DNA of 11,064 nucleotides, from positions 1 through 11,064 of the IMG/VR virus record IMGVR_UViG_648276661_000004. One strand, written 5' to 3'. Below are positions 1 to 11,064 of this stretch, one piece after another. The translations under genes were made by a program, and so were the position numbers. Every line of letters begins with the position of its first letter. Position 1 is the stretch's first letter. Below the pieces are notes generated by a model, which was not told where the DNA came from, made no database searches, and saw only the letters and a list, made by a program, of their open reading frames with translations. This DNA comes from a virus (Duplodnaviria > Heunggongvirae > Uroviricota > Caudoviricetes).

Positions 1-690
1 GTGCGCCAAAGATGCGGTGAGGTCTTTCGTTATGCAATCATAACTGGCCGAGCTGAATACAATCCAGCACCTGATTTAGCTATCGCTCTGGCCGTTCCTA
101 AGCAAAAACACCACCCATTTTTATCTGCCGAAGAGTTGCCTTATTTTATTCGAGATCTGGAAGCGTATACCGGCAGCATCATCACAAAAAATGCAACAAA
201 GATAGTTATGCTTACCGGTGTACGAACCCAAGAGATGCGCTTTGCTACATGGGATGAGGTTGATCTTGAAAAAGGTATATGGGAAATCCCAGCAGAAAGA
301 ATGAAAATGCGCAGAACCCATCTTGTGCCATTATCAACGCAGGTAACAGAATTATTCAAGCAACTGAAACCTATCACGGGACATTACCCTTACATTTTTA
401 TTGGCAGAAATAACCGCAGTAAACCGATCTCGAAAGAAAGCGTTTCACAAGTAATTGAGCTGCTTGGTTATAAAGGACGGGCTACTGGTCATGGATTTCG
501 GCATTCTATGTCGACCATACTTCATGAGCAAGGATTTGATAGTGCCTGGATTGAAATGCAATTAGCTCATGTTGACAAAAATAATATTCGAGGTACCTAT
601 AATCATGCTCAGTATATAGAAAAAAGAAGATATATGTTGCAGTGGTATGCTGACAGAATACTTCCCCCTTTATCCAAAACTCCATTATAA
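1..690 (+). CDS. int: Tyrosine recombinase / P4-type integrase, C-terminal 229 aa (5' end truncated by window start)
   Basis: ORF runs from the window edge to TAA at 688-690. C-terminal catalytic region motifs HGFRHSMSTILHEQG and RGTYNHAQYIEKRRYM (conserved Tyr region) are typical of P4-family integrases. It converges on the cargo cassette. Confidence 0.9.
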   Translation: MRQRCGEVFRYAIITGRAEYNPAPDLAIALAVPKQKHHPFLSAEELPYFIRDLEAYTGSIITKNATKIVMLTGVRTQEMRFATWDEVDLEKGIWEIPAERMKMRRTHLVPLSTQVTELFKQLKPITGHYPYIFIGRNNRSKPISKESVSQVIELLGYKGRATGHGFRHSMSTILHEQGFDSAWIEMQLAHVDKNNIRGTYNHAQYIEKRRYMLQWYADRILPPLSKTPL

Positions 691-698
691 AATACAGA

Positions 699-725
699 CT
701 GGCAGCCTAAAAATAAGGCTGCCAG
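699..725. terminator. Convergent-gene hairpin (9-bp perfect stem CTGGCAGCC / GGCTGCCAG, 9-nt loop) between int and the cargo operon
   Basis: Perfect inverted repeat read directly. On the minus-strand RNA the hairpin is followed by a U-rich run (UCUGUAUUUUAU); on the plus strand the downstream tract is weaker. It lies between the stops of two convergent genes. Confidence 0.45.
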
Positions 726-736
726 TGATTACAAAG

Positions 737-1270
737 TTACAATCTCCTATTGAGATCATGTTTGTTTTTTTTATTTTTTAGTTCAATTATAAAATTAACA
801 TTAGATGCAATCACAATATAGAGAGCTATAAGCTGTAAATAGCTCAACATTAGCAAAAAAAATATACCAATTGCAACAAAAAAACTTGGAATATGAATAA
901 ACAGCCAAGATTTAATGATGAACGGCTTTAAAACAACTCCTATTAAAAGAAGAGATAACACTATTGCGGATAGTACCACAACACCAACAATGATCTTGAC
1001 TCGCTCACTATCCTCATCTGAAAAAATAGCATCCACTTTTGATGGCTGCGTAATCCTCAATATTGCATTAGGGTATAGATATGCTATCCATATTCCCATA
1101 ATAGTAAAAACCATTACAGAAACATTCTGTAAAATAGAAATTAATGGGTCTAAATCCTGACTTTTAATATCAGAGCGATATGCAAAACTGGCCCAAACAA
1201 TAGCAGCTAATGGAATGATGTGAAGATATTTGAGACGCTCTCGAGTTTTATCTTTCATATACATCACCAA
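737..1270 (-). CDS. Hypothetical multipass membrane protein (4-5 predicted TM helices, basic C-terminal tail), second gene of the cargo cassette
   Basis: 177-aa ORF with hydrophobic segments YLHIIPLAAIVWASFAY, VSVMVFTIMGIWIAYLY, IIVGVVVLSAIVLSLLLIGVVL and WLFIHIPSFFVAIGIFFLLMLSYLQLIALYIVIA, ending KNKKNKHDLNRRL. The maximal ORF begins with TTG at 1270 directly abutting the upstream stop (1271-1273); the true start is more likely ATG at 1264 or ATG at 1258 (GGTGA 5 nt upstream). AT-rich codon usage differs from the backbone. Confidence 0.7.
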   Translation of the reverse strand: MVMYMKDKTRERLKYLHIIPLAAIVWASFAYRSDIKSQDLDPLISILQNVSVMVFTIMGIWIAYLYPNAILRITQPSKVDAIFSDEDSERVKIIVGVVVLSAIVLSLLLIGVVLKPFIIKSWLFIHIPSFFVAIGIFFLLMLSYLQLIALYIVIASNVNFIIELKNKKNKHDLNRRL

Positions 1271-2431
1271 TCAAGAATTCGCCTGTTCTTCGGAGTTCGG
1301 AGAACTTGTTGTAAAGGCAGCTAGTAGATTATCTCTAGTTAAGTGCAAAGCATTCAGAATTCTACTAGTCGTATAAAACCCTGAATCATCATACTGACCT
1401 ACATCACTAACTAATAATGTATTCCTTACAACGAACTCGTTTAACCAACATGTTCCCCCTACACCTTCTTTTCTAAAACCTAAGTTGGCCCAATCACCAG
1501 CACTAACATTATATTCTTCATTGTACGTTTCAAAAATAGAACGCAACTCTTCTCCTGTAGGAGAGGCTTCTATGGTTAATTCAATCTTTCTAGTATCTCT
1601 TGTTACCTCGCTAGAAATGAATGGAAGACCTCTAAAATACCTTGTCCAGCCAGCATCTGGCTGAACTGATGCGCTAATGACATCCCGTTTGACGAAGTGC
1701 GTTATCTGGTTAGCAATTCTATCCAAGTCGGCTTCATTTGTTAATTTTGTATATTGTTCACTATATATCCTAAGCCACAAATTGTCACCCGAAGCAGAAA
1801 TAAAAGATATACTTAAATAATTTCCATTTTTACCTTCCTTCATTTCTCGACGTTTTGGCCTAATATTACTATGTAGTGTCATGAAATCACGAAGATATTT
1901 ATTCATCAGTTCTGTATCTGAAATTGAACTATGGAATTTTATTGATGCAAAAATATTTAAAGAGGGAACAAACCAATAATAAGCGGGCTCACCCCATATA
2001 ACATTTTCACCATCTAACTCTTCATCAGCACTGTACAAACGATCATCACTTAAGGCAGAGTCAGAGCGAATACCATAAACTCCATTCCCATTTCCAATTG
2101 CTCGCCATAAAATTACAACATAATCGCCTGTGCTCTCGTTACGCTCAATTCCCTTCAAGTAAACTTTTTTCCTTGAAGAATACCCGGGAGTATTGTCATC
2201 CCAAAGTAATGTATCTGCCAATGAAGTCCTACTTGAGAACCAAGTATGTAAGGACTCCAGCATATCGGCCATCATCAACGGCTCATAATATGAATCACCT
2301 CTCTTATGGAATCCTAATTGTTTATATTTGAAAAAAGTGACCAGTCCTTCGCTCATTTGCGCACCATTAGTTGAAGTTGAATGCTTCGATTTTAGAGAAA
2401 ATCTAACCAGAAGAAGATGTGTGATGAACAT
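1271..2431 (-). CDS. Hypothetical soluble protein (386 aa), first gene of the cargo cassette; no family recognised
   Basis: Long ORF with ATG at 2429-2431 preceded by AAGGA 9 nt upstream; an alternative start is ATG at 2354-2356 (M26). No canonical Walker A/P-loop seen. Contains a Gly-rich stretch IGNGNGVYGIRSD and an acidic cluster SDDRLYSADEELDGEN. The stop TGA sits directly against the start region of the downstream membrane-protein gene, suggesting translational coupling. Confidence 0.75.
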   Translation of the reverse strand: MFITHLLLVRFSLKSKHSTSTNGAQMSEGLVTFFKYKQLGFHKRGDSYYEPLMMADMLESLHTWFSSRTSLADTLLWDDNTPGYSSRKKVYLKGIERNESTGDYVVILWRAIGNGNGVYGIRSDSALSDDRLYSADEELDGENVIWGEPAYYWFVPSLNIFASIKFHSSISDTELMNKYLRDFMTLHSNIRPKRREMKEGKNGNYLSISFISASGDNLWLRIYSEQYTKLTNEADLDRIANQITHFVKRDVISASVQPDAGWTRYFRGLPFISSEVTRDTRKIELTIEASPTGEELRSIFETYNEEYNVSAGDWANLGFRKEGVGGTCWLNEFVVRNTLLVSDVGQYDDSGFYTTSRILNALHLTRDNLLAAFTTSSPNSEEQANS

Positions 2432-2469
2432 TTAATCATGTCCTTAAATTAATGCAACCTTCGTGCGCA

Positions 2470-2488
2470 GTGCTTTCCCCGCCTCGCC
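2470..2488. other. cos site core: 19-nt P2/P4-type cohesive-end sequence (reverse complement reads GGCGAGGCGGGGAAAGCAC)
   Basis: Plus strand 2470-2488 is GTGCTTTCCCCGCCTCGCC, the reverse complement of the P2/P4 cohesive end as I recall it. It lies between psu and the cargo cassette, where cos sits in P4. The 19-mer is recalled from memory, not searched. Confidence 0.65.
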
Positions 2489-2588
2489 CGCCCGCTTTGC
2501 GGGGCAGTTTTAATGCAGTTGCACTGACACACTCAGACCGCGCCGGGAATGGCGCAGTCTGCAGAAAATGAGGCAGGAAAACGCATGC

Positions 2589-2622
2589 AAAGCCATGCAC
2601 CTTATCGATGCATGGCTTTTTT
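2589..2622. terminator. Intrinsic terminator hairpin downstream of psu (stem AAAGCCATGCA / TGCATGGCTTT, 9-nt loop, T-run on plus strand, A-run on the other side)
   Basis: Perfect 9-11 bp inverted repeat followed by TTTTTT on the plus strand and flanked by an A-tract, so it can act in both directions. It sits 30 bp beyond the psu stop (2653-2655) and probably ends the late sid-delta-psu transcript. The plus-strand orientation is the stronger intrinsic terminator. Confidence 0.5.
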
Positions 2623-2652
2623 CAGTAAAAACAGGCGGATTTTCGGGGAATT

Positions 2653-3225
2653 TTACACAGACTGACGTGATGCCAGTTGCGCACTTTTACGCGAAAAAAT
2701 CATGTTCTGCGCAGGGGTGAATTTTTCACGGCTGTCATCCACCGAAGCCGCGTCAGGCCTGAATCCGATGGTCGTTAAAATGTCGCTATCCTGTGCGGAA
2801 TAATTAATTTTTTCACCCTTTGCAAGCCAGGACAGAAGGGCTTCACGCAGGGCATCTGTGGCACGCTGTATGGCACAGTTTCGGGCAATGGCCGTCAGCT
2901 CACTGTAGCCCATCAGCTCCGGTGCCAGTGCCGCCGCCAGTGCTGTGCCGTGCTGCTGCATAAAATCATTCAGCCGGTCGCGGATGCTGATGTGCTGAAC
3001 GGCTTCATGCGAACGAATATAACGACCGGCGGCCTGATTCACCTGCCATTTTCTGACTTCGATAATATTGCGTAATTCGTCCAGGCGACTGACGTTTCTG
3101 CCTTCCCCGGACAGAAGCCGCAGATATTCCTGTTCGGCCGCAGACAGCTCATTTTTGCGTTGCAGCCATGCTGCTTTGTTATTCTGACAGGTGTCAAAGG
3201 CCTGCTGTAAGGCTGTGCTTTCCAT
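2653..3225 (-). CDS. psu: Polarity suppression protein Psu (190 aa)
   Basis: 190-aa ORF at the last position of the sid-delta-psu late operon. The length equals P4 Psu and the N-terminus MESTALQQAFDTCQ is consistent with my recollection of Psu. Confidence 0.85.
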   Translation of the reverse strand: MESTALQQAFDTCQNNKAAWLQRKNELSAAEQEYLRLLSGEGRNVSRLDELRNIIEVRKWQVNQAAGRYIRSHEAVQHISIRDRLNDFMQQHGTALAAALAPELMGYSELTAIARNCAIQRATDALREALLSWLAKGEKINYSAQDSDILTTIGFRPDAASVDDSREKFTPAQNMIFSRKSAQLASRQSV

Positions 3226-3298
3226 CGTTATCTCTTTCTCATCATGCTGAAGAATAAAAATACGGTGTGCGGCGACGGCCGGTGTTAACCGGCAGCCC

Positions 3299-3799
3299 TC
3301 ATTCCAGACGCAGCGAATATGATTGTGTTTTTAAGCGTACTGGCGGCAGTTCCTGTTTTTCATGCAGGCTTTCTGCCAGTTCGTCCGGCGTGACCGGGCG
3401 GACAATAAAACGGTTGATGGTCTGAAGCGTTTTAAACACCAGACCACATCCCGGATCCGTGCACACATAAAAACGCTCGGTGACTTCCTGAGACAGACGC
3501 CGCGATGTTCTTGACAGTGCAAGGCCTTTACATCTCCGACAACAATATCCGGTAACAAGCATTCTTTTCGGGCGTTTCATACTGCCGGAGGCTGACGTCA
3601 GTGAATCGCGGTATCTCTGTTTGCCTGAAATGTATTCCATTCCTGAATCTTTACAGTCAGAGAAAAAGCTTTCACTCGCTTCAAATGTCGCAGAGCAATA
3701 AATATTCCGGCACTGTGCAATCATTATCTTGGTGCCATCGTCCATGAAATGTGCGCGACGGGTGTGAGCAACATGTCCACACGACGGGCAGTAAATCAT
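3299..3799 (-). CDS. delta: Delta late-gene transcriptional activator (Ogr/Delta zinc-finger family, tandem-domain form, 166 aa)
   Basis: Two Ogr-like Cys motifs: CPSCGH...CRNIYC at the N-terminus and CCRRCKG...CTDPGCG in the second half. The 166-aa length equals P4 Delta. Its ATG overlaps the sid stop in an ATGA arrangement (3796-3799). Confidence 0.9.
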   Translation of the reverse strand: MIYCPSCGHVAHTRRAHFMDDGTKIMIAQCRNIYCSATFEASESFFSDCKDSGMEYISGKQRYRDSLTSASGSMKRPKRMLVTGYCCRRCKGLALSRTSRRLSQEVTERFYVCTDPGCGLVFKTLQTINRFIVRPVTPDELAESLHEKQELPPVRLKTQSYSLRLE

Positions 3800-4530
3800 G
3801 ACAGCAGCCCTCTGGCCTTAAGCTCTGCTGCCTGCTGGTCTATTTTGTCCTGCCACACCTTGCGCTGTGCCGGTGTGCCTGCCACCTCATAATCCATGTG
3901 CGGGAGTGTTGCCGCTGACAGTCCGGTCAGCCGGAGAACCGGCTCGCCGGTGAGGCTGATTTGCATCTGTTTAATTTTCTGTTCCAGCGATGATTTCACC
4001 TGCTGCATGACAGCTTTATCGGGTGCGACGTAGCCCTGATGGCCGGTGGTGTTGGCGAGCGGATTTTCCTGTACCAGGATACTCAGATGCATTGCCCGGA
4101 CAAGCGCCTCACAGGTTTCATTCAGGGCGTGTTCCAGCTCATGCTCTGCATACAGACTCAGAAGGTGATGATGTGCCTTCCGGTAGGCGGTGGCCGTGCT
4201 GTCACACGCCCCTTTCAGGCGTTCACGTTCGAAATTCAGCACCACGGCCAGATTGTCATATTCCTGTACCAGCTCCCGGCGTGCCACGCGCTCAATGCGG
4301 CGCTGTTTCAGCTCGTCGCTCAGGACACCACCGGCTGCACGAAAGGCCGTGCGCCAGTCGTCAGCGTCGTTTCCGTCGGTCTGCGCCAGCACATTTTTTT
4401 CCTGCTCTGCCCGTTCAATGGCCGTGATGGTCTCATCCATCAGGCGGGCGTTCTCAAGGTGGGCGGCTCTGGCCTTTTCCAGTTGTGCCAGTGCGGGTTG
4501 CAGATATTCAGGGATAGTGTGGTCAGACAT
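3796..4530 (-). CDS. sid: Capsid size determination protein Sid (external scaffold), 244 aa
   Basis: Start chosen at ATG 4528-4530 with GAGGAG 7 nt upstream, giving 244 aa, the length of P4 Sid. The ORF track starts 6 codons earlier at a GTG. Coiled-coil-like, charged composition. First gene of the late operon, 4-nt overlap with delta. Confidence 0.85.
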   Translation of the reverse strand: MSDHTIPEYLQPALAQLEKARAAHLENARLMDETITAIERAEQEKNVLAQTDGNDADDWRTAFRAAGGVLSDELKQRRIERVARRELVQEYDNLAVVLNFERERLKGACDSTATAYRKAHHHLLSLYAEHELEHALNETCEALVRAMHLSILVQENPLANTTGHQGYVAPDKAVMQQVKSSLEQKIKQMQISLTGEPVLRLTGLSAATLPHMDYEVAGTPAQRKVWQDKIDQQAAELKARGLLS

Positions 4531-4564
4531 TTTCCGGCTCCTCGTCACTTCAGGTTAAGAAAAT

Positions 4565-4620
4565 TGTGACGTACACCGGACAACAACACGACGTATTGCA
4601 GATGTGCCAGCCCTGACACA
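4565..4620 (-). promoter_or_regulatory. Psid-like late promoter region with two Ogr/Delta-type TGT-N12-ACA dyads (4565-4582 and 4603-4620)
   Basis: Two exact TGT-N12-ACA elements spaced 38 bp centre to centre. With a minus-strand transcription start near 4556 they would be centred near -18 and -55, the arrangement I recall for P4 late promoters. The sid SD and ATG follow at 4545-4528. Confidence 0.6.
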
Positions 4621-4699
4621 GGAGACTCATCCTCACACCGGCAAGCCAGGAAAAGGTCGCAGGAAAAACCGGCTTACTGTTTGTTTTTTTATATTTTAC

Positions 4700-4803
4700 T
4701 GTTCACCTCTGTTCACCTTAATAAAAAAGATAAGTAATACAGTAAGTTAAAGGGTGAACAATCGCAGTAATGACTGTTCACCGTCTGTTCACCACTGTTC
4801 ACC
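4700..4803. repeat. Cluster of TGTTCACC octamer iterons (alpha-protein binding type; ori-like)
   Basis: TGTTCACC at 4700-4707, 4710-4717, 4775-4782, 4786-4793 and 4796-4803, plus the inverted copy GGTGAACA at 4753-4760. The same octamer recurs in the crr-like repeats about 4.8 kb away, as expected for P4 ori/crr. Confidence 0.6.
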
Positions 4804-4907
4804 CGCTCATGGACTTTTTGTGCTGTTTACTACTGTTTGTTTTTATTAATTCGCCGGGAATGAATAAGAAGAAACGATTTGTATTTCACTATAAAAATTA
4901 CAAATTG

Positions 4908-4937
4908 CTTTAAGTGGCTTTAAATGACTTTAAGTGG
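4908..4937 (+). repeat. Three tandem 10-bp units CTTTAAGTGG / CTTTAAATGA / CTTTAAGTGG upstream of vis
   Basis: Direct tandem repeat read from the sequence, in the Psid/PLL control region. Function unknown; a candidate protein-binding array. Confidence 0.4.
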
Positions 4938-4962
4938 GAATGAACAAAAAACACACAACCAT

Positions 4963-4980
4963 TGTAAGGCTGCCGGAACA
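4963..4980 (+). promoter_or_regulatory. TGT-N12-ACA dyad, candidate Delta site of a PLL-like late promoter driving vis
   Basis: Exact TGT-N12-ACA (TGTAAGGCTGCCGGAACA). If centred at -55, transcription would start near 5026, about 57 nt upstream of the vis ATG at 5083. Confidence 0.45.
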
Positions 4981-5082
4981 AATCCCCCCTGTTGCGTCTG
5001 CTGAAAATATTCACAAAATAAAGCGCTACCCGAAGCCGGACGGACTTATCCGGTGCTGTATGGACATTAACGAGGTAGCCCG

Positions 5083-5349
5083 ATGCAAGCTGTTTTTTCT
5101 TCCCCGTCTCCTGCCCCTGTGACGCCACTGATGCCGCTGCCGGACATCACGCAGGAGCGTTTTTTACGTCTGCCGGAAGTGATGCACCTGTGCGGCCTGT
5201 CACGCTCGACCATCTACGAACTCATCCGTAAGGGGGAATTTCCGCCGCAGGTGAGTCTTGGCGGTAAAAATGTGGCCTGGCTGCACTCTGAAGTCACTGC
5301 ATGGATGGCCGGGCGCATCGCCGGACGCAAACGGGGGTACGACGCATGA
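5083..5349 (+). CDS. vis: Vis / AlpA-family DNA-binding regulator-excisionase (88 aa)
   Basis: Helix-turn-helix core [19 protein letters not shown] characteristic of the AlpA/Vis family. ATG at 5083 has GAGG 7 nt upstream. The 88-aa length and the position between the late promoter region and the immunity region match P4 vis. Confidence 0.8.
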
Positions 5350-5384
5350 TGATGCCTGTTCTGCAAAAACTCCCTTTTTCTGGC

Positions 5385-5414
5385 TTGCCTTTTTCCGGCA
5401 TTTGCGGATATAGT
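5385..5414 (+). promoter_or_regulatory. Sigma70-like promoter (TTGCCT - 18 bp - TATAGT), candidate PLE-type promoter for the immunity/early operon
   Basis: -35 TTGCCT at 5385-5390 and -10 TATAGT at 5409-5414 with an 18-bp spacer. It sits 36 bp after the vis stop and about 30 bp upstream of seqA. Confidence 0.5.
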
Positions 5415-5443
5415 TTTTCCGCTGCCGCAAAATCGGCAGCCGG

Positions 5444-5474
5444 GCGTGAGAACCCGAGCAATCTAACGGCGACA
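5444..5474 (+). promoter_or_regulatory. seqA-like antisense target (blocks GTGAGAA ... TCTAACGG complementary to the seqB-like segment at 5641-5663)
   Basis: GCGTGAGAACCCGAGCAATCTAACGGCGACA shares the two blocks GTGAGAA and (T)CTAACGG with seqC (5687-5730). Both blocks are complementary to CCGTTAGA...ATTCTCAC at 5641-5663. Confidence 0.45.
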
Positions 5475-5477
5475 TAT

Positions 5478-5499
5478 GACGCGCCATGCGTCTTTTTTT
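5478..5499 (+). terminator. Hairpin GACGC-GCCAT-GCGTC followed by TTTTTTT: candidate immunity (premature-termination) terminator just after seqA
   Basis: 5-bp GC-rich stem, 5-nt loop and a T7 run on the plus strand inside the operon leader. This fits the termination-based immunity mechanism of P4/P1-type antisense systems. Confidence 0.45.
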
Positions 5500-5589
5500 G
5501 TGTCGCAATCAACGCCACAGAGCGCCAGATTATGGTGTGGCGTGTGGTTTGCCGTGCAGGTATGATCCTGTTTGCAATCGCATGTTATG

Positions 5590-5670
5590 CCACTGAGTCA
5601 ATGGTAGCTCAGGCGGGGCAGCCTCCGGGCTGGCCGGTATCCGTTAGAGCCGGTATTCTCACCCCCGTCT
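5590..5670 (+). ncRNA. Candidate CI-like (C4-family) antisense immunity RNA containing the seqB-like segment; ends are approximate
   Basis: 5641-5663 (CCGTTAGAGCCGGTATTCTCACC) is complementary in two blocks to both seqA and seqC. It lies between the two targets as in P4. The exact 5' and 3' ends cannot be set from sequence alone. Confidence 0.3.
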
Positions 5671-5686
5671 GGGCTATCGCCATCGA

Positions 5687-5730
5687 GCGTGAGAACTCCG
5701 GCGATAGCGTAACCTGCTATCTAACGGAGG
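5687..5730 (+). promoter_or_regulatory. seqC-like antisense target overlapping the ribosome-binding site of the kil/icd-like gene
   Basis: GCGTGAGAACTCCGGCGATAGCGTAACCTGCTATCTAACGGAGG: the GTGAGAA block lies in the loop of a hairpin (GCTATCGCC 5672-5680 pairing with GGCGATAGC 5700-5708), and the CTAACGG block is fused to the GGAGG SD (5726-5730) of the downstream gene. Confidence 0.45.
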
Positions 5731-5738
5731 CTGCCATC

Positions 5739-5936
5739 ATGGCTACAACCCTTACCCCCTCACACCCTGAATTTGTCTTTGTGTTTGCGGCTGTCCGTCG
5801 CGCAGACCGTCATCCCCGTATCTGCATGCTTCGCACCGTCGCCGGTGATGAACGCAGCGCCCGCCGTTCCCTTGTCCGTGACTATGTGCTCTCCCTTGCT
5901 GCCCGTCTGCCGGTGGTGGAGGTGTCCCGTGCGTAA
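5739..5936 (+). CDS. kil: Kil / Icd-like host cell-division inhibitor (65 aa), first translated gene after the immunity RNA
   Basis: ATG at 5739 with GGAGG 8 nt upstream. The 65-aa product starts [26 protein letters not shown]. Position immediately downstream of seqC is as for P4 kil and P1 icd. The upstream part of the 211-aa track ORF (5301-5738) is regulatory and RNA sequence, not coding. Confidence 0.7.
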
Positions 5937-6216
5937 TAAAAAAGCCCCTCAGACCGTCTCAGCGCGTCATGACGCCCGTGAACACCTCAGCATTGAGGCT
6001 TACCATAAGCTCAACCGCGCCAGCGCCGTATCCCAGTTTGTTGGGGGTGATTTGATTCACCGTGAACTCTCCGGCCTGCATCAGCTCTACATTCCGCATA
6101 TTTTCAGCTACCTGAATGAAGATATTGATTTTGTGCTGAATGAGCTGAAAGCCAAAGGCCTGTGCCGCGATTTTCTCGCCCAGCAGAAAGACCGGGGAGA
6201 CAGGACGCATGTTTGA
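5929..6216 (+). CDS. Hypothetical protein (95 aa), GTG start overlapping the kil stop; corresponds by position to the eta/epsilon region of P4
   Basis: The frame has no in-frame ATG at all, so the start is non-ATG; GTG at 5929 overlaps the kil stop codon (GTGCGTAATAA). The stop overlaps the next gene start by 8 nt. Composition matches the backbone. Confidence 0.55.
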
Positions 6217-6664
6217 TTTTCCCCAGCCCGGTGAGATTTACCGTTCTGCCGGTTTTCCCGATGTGGCCGTGGTCGGCATTCTGGAAGACGGTATTCCGTG
6301 GGAAATGCCGTACCGCTGCCCGGACATTGTCTGGAATCCGTACCGCCGTAAATTCAGTATCCTTGTGCGTATCCTCGCCGACGGGCGCACCACAGACATC
6401 CCGCTGGGGCGTTTTCTGCGGGAATTTACCTGTGACCGTCCTGACCTGTTTAAACGCAGCCCCGTAAACCGGCATGCGGTACTGAAAGAAATGGCCGGAG
6501 ACCCGGAATTACAGAAATGGCGGGAGAAATATCTGGATATTTACCCACAGGACCCTGTTCCGGTCAGCCGGGCGGCACCGGTGGCGCGGGAATGGAGGGA
6601 AATTCCCCGCACGGAGTCTGACCCGGAAATCACCCCGGATAACAGTTACCGCAATTATCTGTAA
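6209..6664 (+). CDS. Hypothetical protein, 151 aa (P4 orf151-like by length and position)
   Basis: ATG at 6209 with GGGAGA 8 nt upstream; overlaps the previous ORF stop, suggesting translational coupling. The 151-aa length and position two genes upstream of alpha match my recollection of P4 orf151. Confidence 0.8.
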   Translation: MFDFPQPGEIYRSAGFPDVAVVGILEDGIPWEMPYRCPDIVWNPYRRKFSILVRILADGRTTDIPLGRFLREFTCDRPDLFKRSPVNRHAVLKEMAGDPELQKWREKYLDIYPQDPVPVSRAAPVAREWREIPRTESDPEITPDNSYRNYL

Positions 6665-6737
6665 TTAAAAAACGACACCCGAAAAATTAAATGTGCGTAT
6701 TCGCGCAGGGATACGCACGTCTTCAGGAGACGCAGAT

Positions 6738-6803
6738 ATGCCTTATCAGTTAATGCAACCGGCACGGAATGCAGTCATCTGTCACAGGGAGGAAAACAAA
6801 TGA
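6738..6803 (+). CDS. Candidate 21-codon upstream ORF ([21 protein letters not shown]) translationally coupled to the 106-aa ORF
   Basis: ATG at 6738 with AGGAG 8 nt upstream. Its stop TGA (6801-6803) overlaps the ATG (6800-6802) of the next gene. Not on the ORF track because it is too short. Confidence 0.25.
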
Positions 6804-7120
6804 AAACACCCTTACCGCCCGTCTTACGCGCTGCCCTTTACCGTCGCGCTGTCGCCTGTGCCTGGCTGACCGTGTGCGAACGTCAGCACCGCTACCCGCA
6901 TCTCACCCTTGAATCACTGGAGGCGGCCATCGCCGCTGAGCTGGAAGGCTTTTATCTGCGCCAGCACGGTGAGGAAAAAGGGCGTCAGATAGCCTGTGCC
7001 CTGCTGGAAGATTTAATGGAATCCGGCCCCCTGAAGGCCGCGCCGTCGCTGTCCTTTCTCGGGCTGGTTGTGATGGATGAACTCTGTGCCCGTCACATAA
7101 AAGCGCCGGTACTGCACTGA
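6800..7120 (+). CDS. Hypothetical protein, 106 aa (P4 orf106-like by length and position)
   Basis: ATG at 6800 with GGGAGG 7 nt upstream. Lies immediately upstream of alpha; 106 aa. Confidence 0.8.
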
Positions 7121-7134
7121 AGGAGAACAACACC

Positions 7135-9468
7135 ATGAAAATGAACGTAACCGCCACCGTCAGCCATGCGCTCGGCCACTGGCCGCGTATTCTCCCGGCG
7201 CTGGGGATTCAGGTGCTGAAAAACCGTCATCAGCCCTGTCCGGTCTGTGGCGGGAGTGACCGCTTCCGTTTTGATGACAGGGAGGGGCGCGGCACCTGGT
7301 ACTGCAATCAGTGTGGTGCCGGTGACGGCCTGAAACTGGTTGAAAAGGTGTTTGGTGTCTCCCCGTCCGACGCGGCCACAAAGGTGGCTGCCGTGACCGG
7401 CAGCCTGCCCCCGGCTGACCCGGCAGTGACGGCTGCCGCCGTTGCTGAAACAGACGCTGCCCGGAAGAACGCTGCCGCACTGGCACAAACCCTGATGGCA
7501 AAAACCCGTCCCGGAACCGGTAACGCCTACCTGACCCGCAAGGGCTTTCCCGGCCGGGAATGCCGGATGCTGACCGGCACACACAGAGCCGGTGGCGTGA
7601 GCTGGCGCGCCGGTGACCTTGTGGTGCCACTGTATGACGACAGCGGCGAACTGGTTAACCTTCAGTTAATCAGTGCTGACGGCCGTAAGCGCACCCTGAA
7701 AGGCGGACAGGTCAGGGGCACCTGTCACATCCTTGAAGGACAGAATCAGGCCGGAAAACGTCTGTGGATAGCGGAGGGATACGCGACCGCACTTACCGTG
7801 CATCACCTGACCGGTGAAACGGTGATGGTGGCGCTTTCTTCCGTGAATCTCCTTTCTCTGGCCAGCCTTGCCCGGCAGAAGCATCCGGCCTGTCAGATTG
7901 TCCTTGCCGCAGACCGTGACCTCAGCGGTGACGGCCAGAAAAAAGCCGCCGCAGCCGCAGATGCGTGTGAAGGTGTTGTTGCCCTGCCGCCGGTCTTCGG
8001 TGACTGGAATGATGCCTTCACGCAGTACGGCGGGGAAGCCACCCGTAAGGCCATTTATGATGCCATCCGGCCACCGGCTGAAAGCCCGTTCGACACCATG
8101 AGCGAAGCAGAGTTTTCCGCCATGAGTACCAGCGAAAAGGCCATGCGTATCTATGAGCATTACGGCGAGGCGCTCGCGGTCGATGCCAACGGCCAGCTTC
8201 TGTCCCGCTATGAAAATGGTGTCTGGAAGGTGCTGCCGCCACAGGACTTTGCCCGGGATGTGGCCGGGCTGTTTCAGCGTCTGCGCGCGCCGTTCTCCTC
8301 CGGGAAGGTGGCCTCCGTGGTGGACACCCTGAAGCTGATTATTCCGCAGCAGGAAGCCCCCTCCCGCCGCCTGATTGGCTTTCGTAACGGCGTGCTCGAC
8401 ACGCAGAACGGCACGTTCCACCCGCACAGTCCGTCACACTGGATGCGTACCCTGTGCGATGTGGATTTCACCCCGCCGGTGGAAGGGGAAACGCTGGAAA
8501 CCCACGCTCCCGCGTTCTGGCGCTGGCTTGACCGTGCCGCCGGTGGTCGTGCGGAAAAACGCGACGTGATTCTGGCCGCACTGTTTATGGTGCTGGCAAA
8601 CCGCTACGACTGGCAGCTCTTTCTGGAGGTGACCGGTCCCGGCGGCAGCGGCAAAAGTATCATGGCCGAAATCGCCACCCTGCTGGCCGGGGAGGATAAC
8701 GCCACGTCGGCCACCATCGAGACGCTGGAATCCCCGCGTGAACGTGCCGCGTTAACTGGCTTCTCACTGATACGCCTGCCGGACCAGGAAAAATGGAGCG
8801 GCGACGGTGCCGGACTCAAGGCCATCACTGGCGGCGATGCGGTGTCCGTTGACCCGAAATACCGGGATGCGTACTCCACGCACATCCCGGCGGTGATTCT
8901 GGCCGTGAACAATAACCCGATGCGCTTCACCGACCGCAGCGGCGGTGTGTCACGCCGGCGGGTGATTATTCACTTCCCGGAACAGATAGCCCCGCAGGAG
9001 CGCGACCCGCAGCTTAAGGACAAAATCACCCGCGAGCTGGCGGTCATCGTGCGTCACCTGATGCAGAAATTCAGCGACCCGATGCTCGCCCGGTCACTGC
9101 TTCAGTCCCAGCAGAACTCAGACGAGGCACTGAACATCAAACGGGATGCCGACCCGACGTTTGATTTTATCGGCTATCTGGAAACCCTGCCGCAGACCAG
9201 CGGCATGTATATGGGGAACGCCAGTATCATCCCGCGTAATTACCGTAAATACCTCTATCACGCCTATCTGGCCTACATGGAGGCAAACGGCTACCGGAAT
9301 GTACTCAGTCTGAAAATGTTCGGGCTGGGGCTGCCGGTGATGCTGAAGGAATACGGACTGAATTACGAGAAGCGCCATACCAAACAGGGGATACAGACCA
9401 ACCTGACGCTGAAAGAGGAAAGCTACGGCGACTGGCTGCCAAAATGTGACGACCCTGCGACAACCTGA
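7135..9468 (+). CDS. alpha: Alpha replication protein: primase-helicase with C-terminal origin-binding domain (777 aa)
   Basis: N-terminal zinc motif CPVCGGSD...YCNQCG (primase type), a Toprim-like region, Walker A GPGGSGKS, and a 777-aa length equal to P4 alpha. AGGAG 9 nt upstream of the ATG. TGTTCACC iteron clusters on both sides are its expected binding sites. Confidence 0.95.
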   Translation: MKMNVTATVSHALGHWPRILPALGIQVLKNRHQPCPVCGGSDRFRFDDREGRGTWYCNQCGAGDGLKLVEKVFGVSPSDAATKVAAVTGSLPPADPAVTAAAVAETDAARKNAAALAQTLMAKTRPGTGNAYLTRKGFPGRECRMLTGTHRAGGVSWRAGDLVVPLYDDSGELVNLQLISADGRKRTLKGGQVRGTCHILEGQNQAGKRLWIAEGYATALTVHHLTGETVMVALSSVNLLSLASLARQKHPACQIVLAADRDLSGDGQKKAAAAADACEGVVALPPVFGDWNDAFTQYGGEATRKAIYDAIRPPAESPFDTMSEAEFSAMSTSEKAMRIYEHYGEALAVDANGQLLSRYENGVWKVLPPQDFARDVAGLFQRLRAPFSSGKVASVVDTLKLIIPQQEAPSRRLIGFRNGVLDTQNGTFHPHSPSHWMRTLCDVDFTPPVEGETLETHAPAFWRWLDRAAGGRAEKRDVILAALFMVLANRYDWQLFLEVTGPGGSGKSIMAEIATLLAGEDNATSATIETLESPRERAALTGFSLIRLPDQEKWSGDGAGLKAITGGDAVSVDPKYRDAYSTHIPAVILAVNNNPMRFTDRSGGVSRRRVIIHFPEQIAPQERDPQLKDKITRELAVIVRHLMQKFSDPMLARSLLQSQQNSDEALNIKRDADPTFDFIGYLETLPQTSGMYMGNASIIPRNYRKYLYHAYLAYMEANGYRNVLSLKMFGLGLPVMLKEYGLNYEKRHTKQGIQTNLTLKEESYGDWLPKCDDPATT

Positions 9469-9484
9469 CCCTCATGGCTCATCT

Positions 9485-9510
9485 GACCGGCATCTGCCGG
9501 TCTTTTTTTT
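9485..9510 (+). terminator. Rho-independent terminator of alpha (stem GACCGG / CCGGTC, 6-nt loop, T8 run)
   Basis: Perfect 6-bp stem GACCGG-CATCTG-CCGGTC followed by TTTTTTTT, 17 nt after the alpha stop codon. Confidence 0.7.
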
Positions 9511-9527
9511 ATCCCTGAATTCCCCGC

Positions 9528-9830
9528 AGGTGAACAATCCACTGCTCATCATTCACCGTGTATTCACCCGTTATCACACTGAAATTAAAAGAGAAAAACG
9601 AAAAGTGAACAGTGTGAACAATCAAATCAAAAAAAACTTTTTTCGCCCTGTGTGATTTCAGTGCGGAGGATTAATCCCCTGCACAAGTCACACCGGCAGA
9701 ATGCCGGAGGTGAAGAATCGAATGTTCACCCTTCACCCATTATTCACCACCTATCACTCTGAAATAAAAGGAGAAAAAAGAAAGGTGAACAGTGTGAACA
9801 GTTCTTTCGAAAAAAAATTTTTTTCCTGAG
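9528..9830. repeat. crr-like cis replication region: two ~120-bp direct repeats with 180-bp period, each carrying TGTTCACC/GGTGAACA-type iterons
   Basis: Copy A (about 9528-9646) and copy B (about 9708-9827) align along their length, for example CATTCACCGTGTATTCACCCGTTATCACACTGAAATTAAAAGAGAAAAACGAAAAGTGAACAGTGTGAACA against CCTTCACCCATTATTCACCACCTATCACTCTGAAATAAAAGGAGAAAAAAGAAAGGTGAACAGTGTGAACA. Each ends in an A-run/T-run. This matches the recalled P4 crr organisation of two 120-bp repeats separated by about 60 bp. Confidence 0.65.
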
Positions 9831-10026
9831 TTAACGTGCGTGAAGATACGTGTAAAAATTAATCGATAGATATTATATGTATAAGGATGTGTATAAATGA
9901 ATTATAATAGAAAAATATAAACGATTTGAATCAAATGGTTATATGGCAATTTTGACTCCTGTGATCTTCCGCCAAAATGCCTCTCCTGAACTCTCCCGAC
10001 GTCAACAACACTCCTTCGGAGGCGAC

Positions 10027-11064
10027 ATGTCAGACAAAGACTTAACCCAGCCCCCAGCAGGCGAGTTTATTATGTTTGCCAGCGGTGACGGAAGAGTGCG
10101 TGTTGAATGTCGCTTTGAGTCAGACACAATCTGGTTATCCCAGGCGGCAATGGCTGAACTGTACGATAAAGATGTTCGCACTATTAACGAACATTTAATC
10201 AATATATTTTCCGAAGGTGAACTTGTTCAAAACTCAACCATCCGGAAATTCCGGATAGTTCGCCAGGAAGGAAAACGTCAGGTTTCCAGAGAGATAGACC
10301 ATTACAACCTCGAAGCCATTCTCGCTGTCGGCTATCGCGTTCGCTCGCCTCGAGGCACGCAATTCCGCCAGTGGGCAACGCAGACGCTTCAGGAATACCT
10401 GATCAAAGGTTTTGTGATGGACGATGAGCGGCTGAAGAATCCGCCTGTCGGTTCATCGGTTGTGCCCGACTATTTTGATGAGATGCTTGAACGCATCCGC
10501 GATATTCGCGCCAGCGAGCGTCGGGTATATTTGCGGGTGCGGGAGATCTTTGCTTTAGCTGCCGACTATCAGCCATCGCTTAAAGAAACCACGCAATTTT
10601 TTCAAACCATCCAGAATAAACTGCATTTTGCCTGTACCGGGCATACCGCTGCGGAACTCATCCACAAACGAGCAGATGCCAGCCAGCCGCACATGGGCTT
10701 GACCAGTTATAAAGGTGAAGAGGTACGTAAGGGCGACGTGACGGTGGCAAAAAATTATCTCACCCAGGATGAGGTCAGCGAACTTAATCGCGTGGTTAAT
10801 ATGTGGCTGGACTTTGCCGAGGATCAGGCCCGTCGTCGTCAGCAAGTCTTTTTGCGCGACTGGCAGGATAAGCTGGATCAGTTCCTGCAATTTAACGACC
10901 GAGAGGTTCTACAGGGCGCTGGTAAAATCAGCAAGAAAATGGCCGATGAAAAAGCGCAGGCGGAGTATGTTCAGTTTGCCGAACAACAACGGCGCTTAAA
11001 AGAAGCCGAAGGCGAGAAGGATATCGCTGGTTTGCTACAGTGGAATAAAGAGTCGAAAAAGTAG
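10027..11064 (+). CDS. RhuM-family protein (virulence protein RhuM-like), about 345 aa
   Basis: Conserved RhuM-type N-terminal region (RVECRFESDTIWLSQAAMAELYDKDVRTINEHL ... AVGYRVRSPRGTQFRQWATQTLQEYLIKGFVMDDERLK). Start chosen at ATG 10027 with GGAGG 4 nt upstream; the track ORF begins earlier at 9943 without an SD. Stop TAG is at the window end. Confidence 0.8.
   Translation: MSDKDLTQPPAGEFIMFASGDGRVRVECRFESDTIWLSQAAMAELYDKDVRTINEHLINIFSEGELVQNSTIRKFRIVRQEGKRQVSREIDHYNLEAILAVGYRVRSPRGTQFRQWATQTLQEYLIKGFVMDDERLKNPPVGSSVVPDYFDEMLERIRDIRASERRVYLRVREIFALAADYQPSLKETTQFFQTIQNKLHFACTGHTAAELIHKRADASQPHMGLTSYKGEEVRKGDVTVAKNYLTQDEVSELNRVVNMWLDFAEDQARRRQQVFLRDWQDKLDQFLQFNDREVLQGAGKISKKMADEKAQAEYVQFAEQQRRLKEAEGEKDIAGLLQWNKESKK

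Follow-up and report, generated by a model that had tools for sequence, protein, structure and literature searches.

P4-like satellites carry a variable defence hotspot between int and psu, beside cos (Rousset et al. 2022, PMC9122126; Moura de Sousa and Rocha 2021/2022, PMC8628076; Moura de Sousa et al. 2026, PMC13586616). In the reference element P4, this slot holds the three genes of gop-beta-cII, of which cII lies on the strand opposite to gop and beta; a phenotype of this region against lambda and P1 has been validated (PMC9122126). The three hotspot papers treat int as a flank of the variable region; base composition is unmentioned in them, the term 'GC content' being absent from their text. 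Rousset et al. also listed a system #4, with 169 occurrences, which they cloned from E. coli IAI75 as pFR81 under the label 'RexA + 4TM'; pFR81 was among the systems without detected activity against eight coliphages (PMC9122126), and Table 2 of Domainator equates system #4 with PDC-M18. A further point of comparison is RexA-RexB of phage lambda, in which a soluble gene is followed by a small membrane-protein gene; RdgC, IML3, and CHL4 are the relatives reported for RexA by Adams et al. 2024.

The stretch of DNA analysed here, a window of 11,064 nt, is a P4-like satellite integrated at the tRNA-Sec gene (selC) of E. coli and is 100% identical to strain Combat2C1 (NZ_CP019243), a locus also found in Table S1A of Rousset et al. 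2022 (PMC9122126). The element consists, in order, of int, a hairpin, two minus-strand cargo genes, cos, the P4 backbone, and attR. The window begins 497 nt inside the integrase gene, and its positions 1-690 on the plus strand hold the 3' part of int with the C-terminal 229 codons of a selC-type tyrosine integrase (Pfam Phage_integrase, 7.7e-27); in the PGAP annotation of NZ_CP019243, the full gene occupies L001 8503-9690, equivalent to window -497 to 690. The backbone (2489-9823) is 97.5% identical to positions 4291-11624 of P4 (X51522), the match reaching the very end of the P4 record. It contains psu (2653-3225, minus strand; Pfam Psu, 1.8e-88), delta (3299-3799, minus strand; Pfam Ogr_Delta), and sid (3796-4548, minus strand), followed by the immunity/ori region, a cnr-like gene (6800-7120, plus strand), and alpha (7135-9468, plus strand), and finally the crr repeats (9524-9823), in line with the P4 annotation. 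The presence of the P4 core genes psu, delta, sid, and alpha beside the integrase, supported by Pfam, P4 identity, and PGAP, confirms that the cargo occupies the int-psu hotspot. At its far end, the satellite is bounded by attR (9945-9983), which repeats the 3' end of tRNA-Sec and forms a direct repeat with L001 8311-8349, with an attL-attR spacing of 10,634 nt.

Two observations concern the far end of the element. The crr region is a direct repeat of 120 nt with copies at 9524-9643 and 9704-9823 that are 79% identical and spaced by 180 nt, and it matches the crr annotation of P4. An open reading frame at 9943-11064 in the program-made list overlaps attR and was considered as a second integrase; we rejected this, as the frame corresponds to a RhuM-family gene outside the satellite, with its PGAP start at window 10027. 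This gene, in the area of window 9945-11064, lies between attR and a third att-like copy ~1.2 kb further on (L001 20176-20203) and appears to be a small remnant of its own, arranged in tandem at selC.

The two cargo genes are both on the minus strand. Gene A (1271-2356) encodes a soluble protein of 361 aa and gene B (737-1258) a membrane protein of 173 aa (PHROG 37654) that is strongly hydrophobic, has about four hydrophobic helices according to hydropathy, and is lysine rich at its end. The genes abut, the stop of gene A being at 1271-1273 and the start of gene B at 1258, and as neighbours they match both PDC-M18 profiles of PADLOC over nearly their full length (PDC-M18A, 2.3e-34; PDC-M18B, 3.4e-16), PDC-M18 being the only system PADLOC returned. 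The reading frame of gene B is open to 1270 with a TTG start and that of gene A to 2431; the homologues and PGAP start gene A at MSEGL (2356), and the table of Rousset et al. gives a longer frame of 386 aa (MFITHLL...), beginning 25 codons upstream of this conserved start (PMC9122126). The printed start of the pFR81 insert and both full printed protein sequences are identical to the window, and gene B is the '4TM' entry of their Table S2B. The cassette is the same as system #4/PDC-M18, without any difference, and is already catalogued as a defence system with candidate status only.

Searches with sequence profiles of Pfam, NCBIfam, and the PDB gave no usable name for either gene. Pfam contained no match for gene A at E ≤ 0.01 and no Rex family among the gene B matches listed at E ≤ 10; the sole NCBIfam match of gene B, VirB4_plasma (E 0.006), was discarded as noise, with 14 bits against a cutoff of 590. 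RexA was not found in the PDB profile search with the cassette proteins, the cassette was not a member of any Rex profile of Pfam or PADLOC, and an hhalign comparison of the family alignments with the single sequences of lambda RexA and RexB gave probabilities below 1%. An AlphaFold2 model of gene A built from 43 homologues reached a mean pLDDT of 79, with values above 84 for residues 1-200 except for 111-120 (76). Foldseek gave no significant match for this model in the PDB, and the structure search of BFVD returned only four uncharacterised siphovirus proteins. A RexA/RdgC-type fold is tentatively proposed for gene A, and it would give the RexA-like label a structural basis.

A hairpin (698-726) separates int from the convergent cargo genes, with an 11-bp stem of which 7 pairs are G-C, a tail CTGTATTTTA on the minus strand, and a free energy of -21.3/-22.6 kcal/mol (z -5.8/-5.9). 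The hairpin named by the original prediction (699-725) is thus genuine, and it looks like a putative terminator of the minus-strand cargo operon. At the other end of the operon, positions 2357-2464 form a cassette-specific leader on the minus strand that is unrelated to other P4-like elements in an alignment of six junctions. A scan of the interval from cos to gene A yielded no sigma-70 promoter of consensus type; for this reason, we regard this region as the presumed promoter region only.

The base composition of the window was the starting point of the original prediction, which described a sharp AT-rich island between the hairpin and cos. The lines counted by hand were borne out (31.7% G+C at 1741-1800 and 60.0% at 7201-7260, within alpha), and the whole region 699-2490 has 36.3% G+C in comparison with 55.2% in the P4-homologous backbone (2489-9823) and 60.8% in alpha. 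At third codon positions, both cargo genes have 27-30% G+C vs. 55-71% in psu, sid, and alpha. Maximum-likelihood segmentation placed the strongest changepoint of the window at 2453, 17 nt from cos (log-likelihood gain 111). It gave no step at 699 and kept 1-2453 as a single segment of 37.1% G+C, the best split of which, at 549, gained only 6.1. With 9 kb of chromosomal context, the left step fell at 344 (gain 47), and with the segmentation restricted to the region from int to cos, it fell at 550, 140 nt before the int stop (gain 11.6). The G+C content of int is 43.4% for 1-399 and 38.1% for 400-690, the latter being close to that of the cargo, and the lowest values of the window, 29-30%, are at 601-1000. 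The AT-rich block is real, and its step at the cos side is far beyond chance; the int-side edge was misplaced by the original prediction, as the profile changes inside int and not at the hairpin.

Low G+C alone is no marker of foreign DNA here because AT-rich stretches also occur in the P4-identical backbone: 4549-5082 (41% G+C), the P4 ori/immunity intergenic region, lies wholly and 9501-9953 (35%), the crr repeats/att region, mostly inside the 97.5%-identical stretch, which extends up to 9823, and ori and crr of P4 have 41-42% G+C. The pattern of the hotspot, on the other hand, recurs in related elements. In reference P4, gop-beta-cII, whose genes are unrelated to those of the window, has 35.9% G+C, int 46.2%, and the backbone 55.4%, and the AT-rich block reaches 113 nt into the 3' end of int. 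Across P4 and four other E. coli P4-like elements with unrelated cargo, the G+C content is 30-37% in the cargo, 39-47% in int, and 53-59% in the backbone, and the int-side composition step is located 79-363 nt inside int in all five elements examined. The shared composition identifies the compositional island as a family trait of the P4 hotspot.

The right edge of the variable region is sharply defined. The 19-nt cohesive-end sequence (2470-2488) exactly matches the 19-nt terminus of the P4 record and, with a conserved GCGCA-type motif on the cargo side, makes up the cos feature at 2465-2488. Homology to other P4-like elements begins at ~2465 and in a few at 2458-2464, such that variable sequence starts 5-7 nt from cos. 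We aligned the junctions of six elements: the window, P4, and four E. coli elements with AAA-ATPase, NACHT, reverse transcriptase, or EcoO109I restriction-modification cargo. The cos 19-mer and a GCGCGCA-type motif were common to all, and the sequences beyond were unrelated. From ~2445-2465 rightwards, the four elements with other cargo share 97-98% backbone identity with the window; in int and cargo, they are unrelated to it or reach at most 78% identity. Among 5,426 complete E. coli genomes, the psu side was matched in 2,265 and the cargo in only 30. Judged from these alignments, the cos region is the right-hand pivot of exchange.

On the left, the int allele and the cargo co-occur in 30 E. 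coli genomes at ≥99.9% identity, and none of the 5,426 complete genomes combines the same int allele with a different cargo, the nearest int alleles being at most 85% identical. For this reason, we mapped the left junction on two divergent P4-like elements from outside E. coli that carry the same cassette, an uncultured Cedecea element and an IMG/VR contig (L021). In the comparison with the Cedecea element, the high-identity block covers window 353-2521, with 92% identity inside the block, 80% elsewhere in int, and 58% towards psu; with the IMG/VR contig, it covers 419-2497, with 94%, 85%, and 69%, respectively. In both cases, the shared block extends just past cos (2497-2521). Third-codon identity between the E. 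coli and Cedecea int is 48-59% up to window 399 and 94% for 400-640, and this jump at ~400 argues for a recombination junction rather than constraint at the protein level. The integrase gene as a whole is mosaic and falls into three parts. Compared with JML285, another selC element of E. coli, it shows 93-98% identity over the first ~200 nt and ~65-85% over the rest; the middle part reaches only 69-87% with either compared element, and the last ~290 nt match the Cedecea element at 92-97%. In the Cedecea int homologue (L007 10850-9663), an ATG start is seemingly missing and codon 7 is a stop codon, which may reflect a pseudogene or an error of assembly.

Composition (step at 344 or 550) and sequence identity (step at 353-419) point to the same conclusion, and we place the start of the block inside int. 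The swapped block includes the last ~270-350 nt of int, and the hairpin is internal to it; the changepoints and identity breakpoints together delimit a unit at 344-2465 that consists of the int 3' end, the hairpin, and the two cargo genes and ends beside cos. Horizontal and modular exchange, as originally proposed, holds well: backbones with 97-98% identity carry unrelated cargo and integrases, and the same cassette is conserved at 92-94% where the psu side has only 58-69% identity. Of the two proposed swap points, the alignments retain the right one at or beside cos and move the left one from the hairpin into int. These comparisons show that the block is exchanged between satellites as a unit delimited by cos and a point inside int.

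Homologues of the cassette are widespread. The A-B pair is found with 83% identity in another P4-like hotspot in Enterobacter sp. CFBP8995, in an element where neither psu nor sid is called in the interval from the Ogr/Delta gene to the cargo; the element may represent a reduced P4-like variant. In Yersinia, the homologues adjoin HicAB toxin-antitoxin genes. In Salmonella enterica, a 57%-identical cassette (L019/L020) is part of a defence island with HipA, Mrr_cat, A and B, a TIR protein, and a type I restriction-modification system with two HsdM genes. Further homologues are present in Aeromonas, Vibrio, Photobacterium, Shewanella, Pseudoalteromonas, Colwellia, and other marine Gammaproteobacteria. 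Gene B, the small polytopic membrane partner, is directly downstream of gene A in seven of seven other full loci. Enterobacterales or P4-like contigs account for all of the closest relatives (78-97% identity), and the marine homologues have at most 63% identity. In every host measured, from Photobacterium to Enterobacter and including hosts of 45-60% G+C, gene A has 35-43% and gene B 30-33% G+C; relative to its local flanks, the cassette is 2-7 points lower in the marine hosts and ~20 points lower in the Enterobacter and E. coli satellites.

We interpret the AT-rich block as the variable cargo locus, or defence hotspot, of P4-like satellites, filled here with a two-gene operon for a putatively RexA-like and a membrane protein and swapped as a unit, and assign this reading a probability of about 0.85. 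The narrower version of the original prediction, in which the cassette comprises the two cargo genes only, is bounded by the hairpin and cos, and leaves int in the backbone, appears very unlikely. In its favour are the hairpin, which is genuine and located precisely at the boundary of int and cargo, and the G+C minimum at 601-1000; against it, there is no changepoint at 699 and int is already depleted in G+C from position 400, the identity to distant elements with the same cargo extends to ~353-419 in int with a synonymous identity of 94%, and int is outside the conserved backbone, P4 and other elements having unrelated integrases. That the low G+C is a by-product of protein composition, gene B encoding a membrane protein with many I, L, F, and K residues, we consider practically excluded: the hydrophobicity and lysine-rich end of gene B and its second-codon-position G+C of 27% would fit, but the soluble gene A is equally AT rich, and the gap at third codon positions refutes the idea that the low G+C is a side effect of the encoded proteins. 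It is also improbable that the low G+C records a recent import from one particular low-G+C lineage (for example, Vibrionaceae or Alteromonadales) that has yet to ameliorate. Such an origin would agree with the family being most diverse in marine Gammaproteobacteria and with the small difference of the genes from their flanks in those hosts, but the nearest relatives are enterobacterial or in P4-like contigs, unrelated cargos in other P4 hotspots are equally AT rich, and even in hosts of 45-60% G+C, gene A stays at 35-42% and gene B at 30-33%. A mobile cargo pool that is AT rich in general accounts better for the uniformly low G+C of the homologues than a dated import from a single donor does. 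As every P4 hotspot examined has 30-37% G+C whatever its cargo and the cassette homologues have 30-43% across hosts, low G+C looks like a general property of the mobile cargo pool and gives no pointer to a specific donor; the 'different gene pool' of the original prediction survives in this general sense only.

A separate question is whom the cassette serves. It could act for the satellite itself, as a RexA-like modulator of the switch between lysogeny and lytic growth or as a membrane toxin or addiction module, and not against phages. The lack of a defence phenotype against the eight phages is compatible with this, as are the HicAB genes next to the Yersinia homologues and the action of lambda RexA on the bistable switch independently of RexB that is described in PMC11077077. 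We nevertheless consider it unlikely: the cassette sits in a slot that holds validated defence systems in other P4-like elements (PMC9122126), the company of restriction-modification, TIR, Mrr, and HipA genes in Salmonella is suggestive, though only that, of defence, and the cassette is present outside satellites in marine genomes without P4 genes and is therefore independent of P4 biology.

Within the reading of the block as an exchangeable defence locus, its turnover would be due to homologous recombination through two crossovers, the first at the conserved cos and the second in the conserved 3' catalytic-domain part of int. The crossover inside int would explain why both the AT-rich composition and the high identity begin ~300 nt before the int stop. 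The cargo operon is transcribed away from cos and ends at the hairpin facing int. The protein of gene A may be a RexA-like sensor of phage DNA or of a DNA-protein intermediate, which would then open or activate the membrane partner encoded by gene B, leading to collapse of the membrane potential and abortive infection. The order of the two genes mirrors that of lambda RexA-RexB, but the systems differ in having no detectable sequence homology and in length, genes A and B being 82 and 29 residues longer, respectively, and the cassette is not beside a cI-type repressor. That the cassette works like RexAB is an analogy that we hold tentatively, at somewhat below even odds, because of the negative published phage test and the missing sequence homology.

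Compared with the published descriptions of the P4 hotspot, the locus shows no essential difference: it has the same position, conserved flanks, a junction adjacent to cos, and a fast turnover of content on a near-identical backbone, the one departure being that the swapped block takes in the last 270-350 nt of int. As earlier work has described the hotspot, its association with cos, and how quickly its content is replaced, and the cassette has been catalogued and tested, our results are mostly confirmation. They add an explicit composition pattern, the placement of the int-side junction inside int, and tentative structural grounds for the RexA-like label. A junction inside int hints at homologous recombination as a route for swaps and at the origin of the mosaic structure of P4 integrases, and the putative RexA/RdgC-type fold provides a concrete hypothesis for a phenotype of PDC-M18 on phages outside the eight tested. 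It is conceivable, though we would not bet on it, that cargo swaps use crossovers in the catalytic part of int and at cos, not at the hairpin, such that cassettes carry their own integrase C terminus and leave mosaic integrases behind, and, separately, that PDC-M18 is a working Rex-type abortive-infection system whose trigger phage lies outside the tested eight. If crossovers inside int were general, the turnover of defence systems in P4-like satellites would be coupled to the evolution of their integrases.
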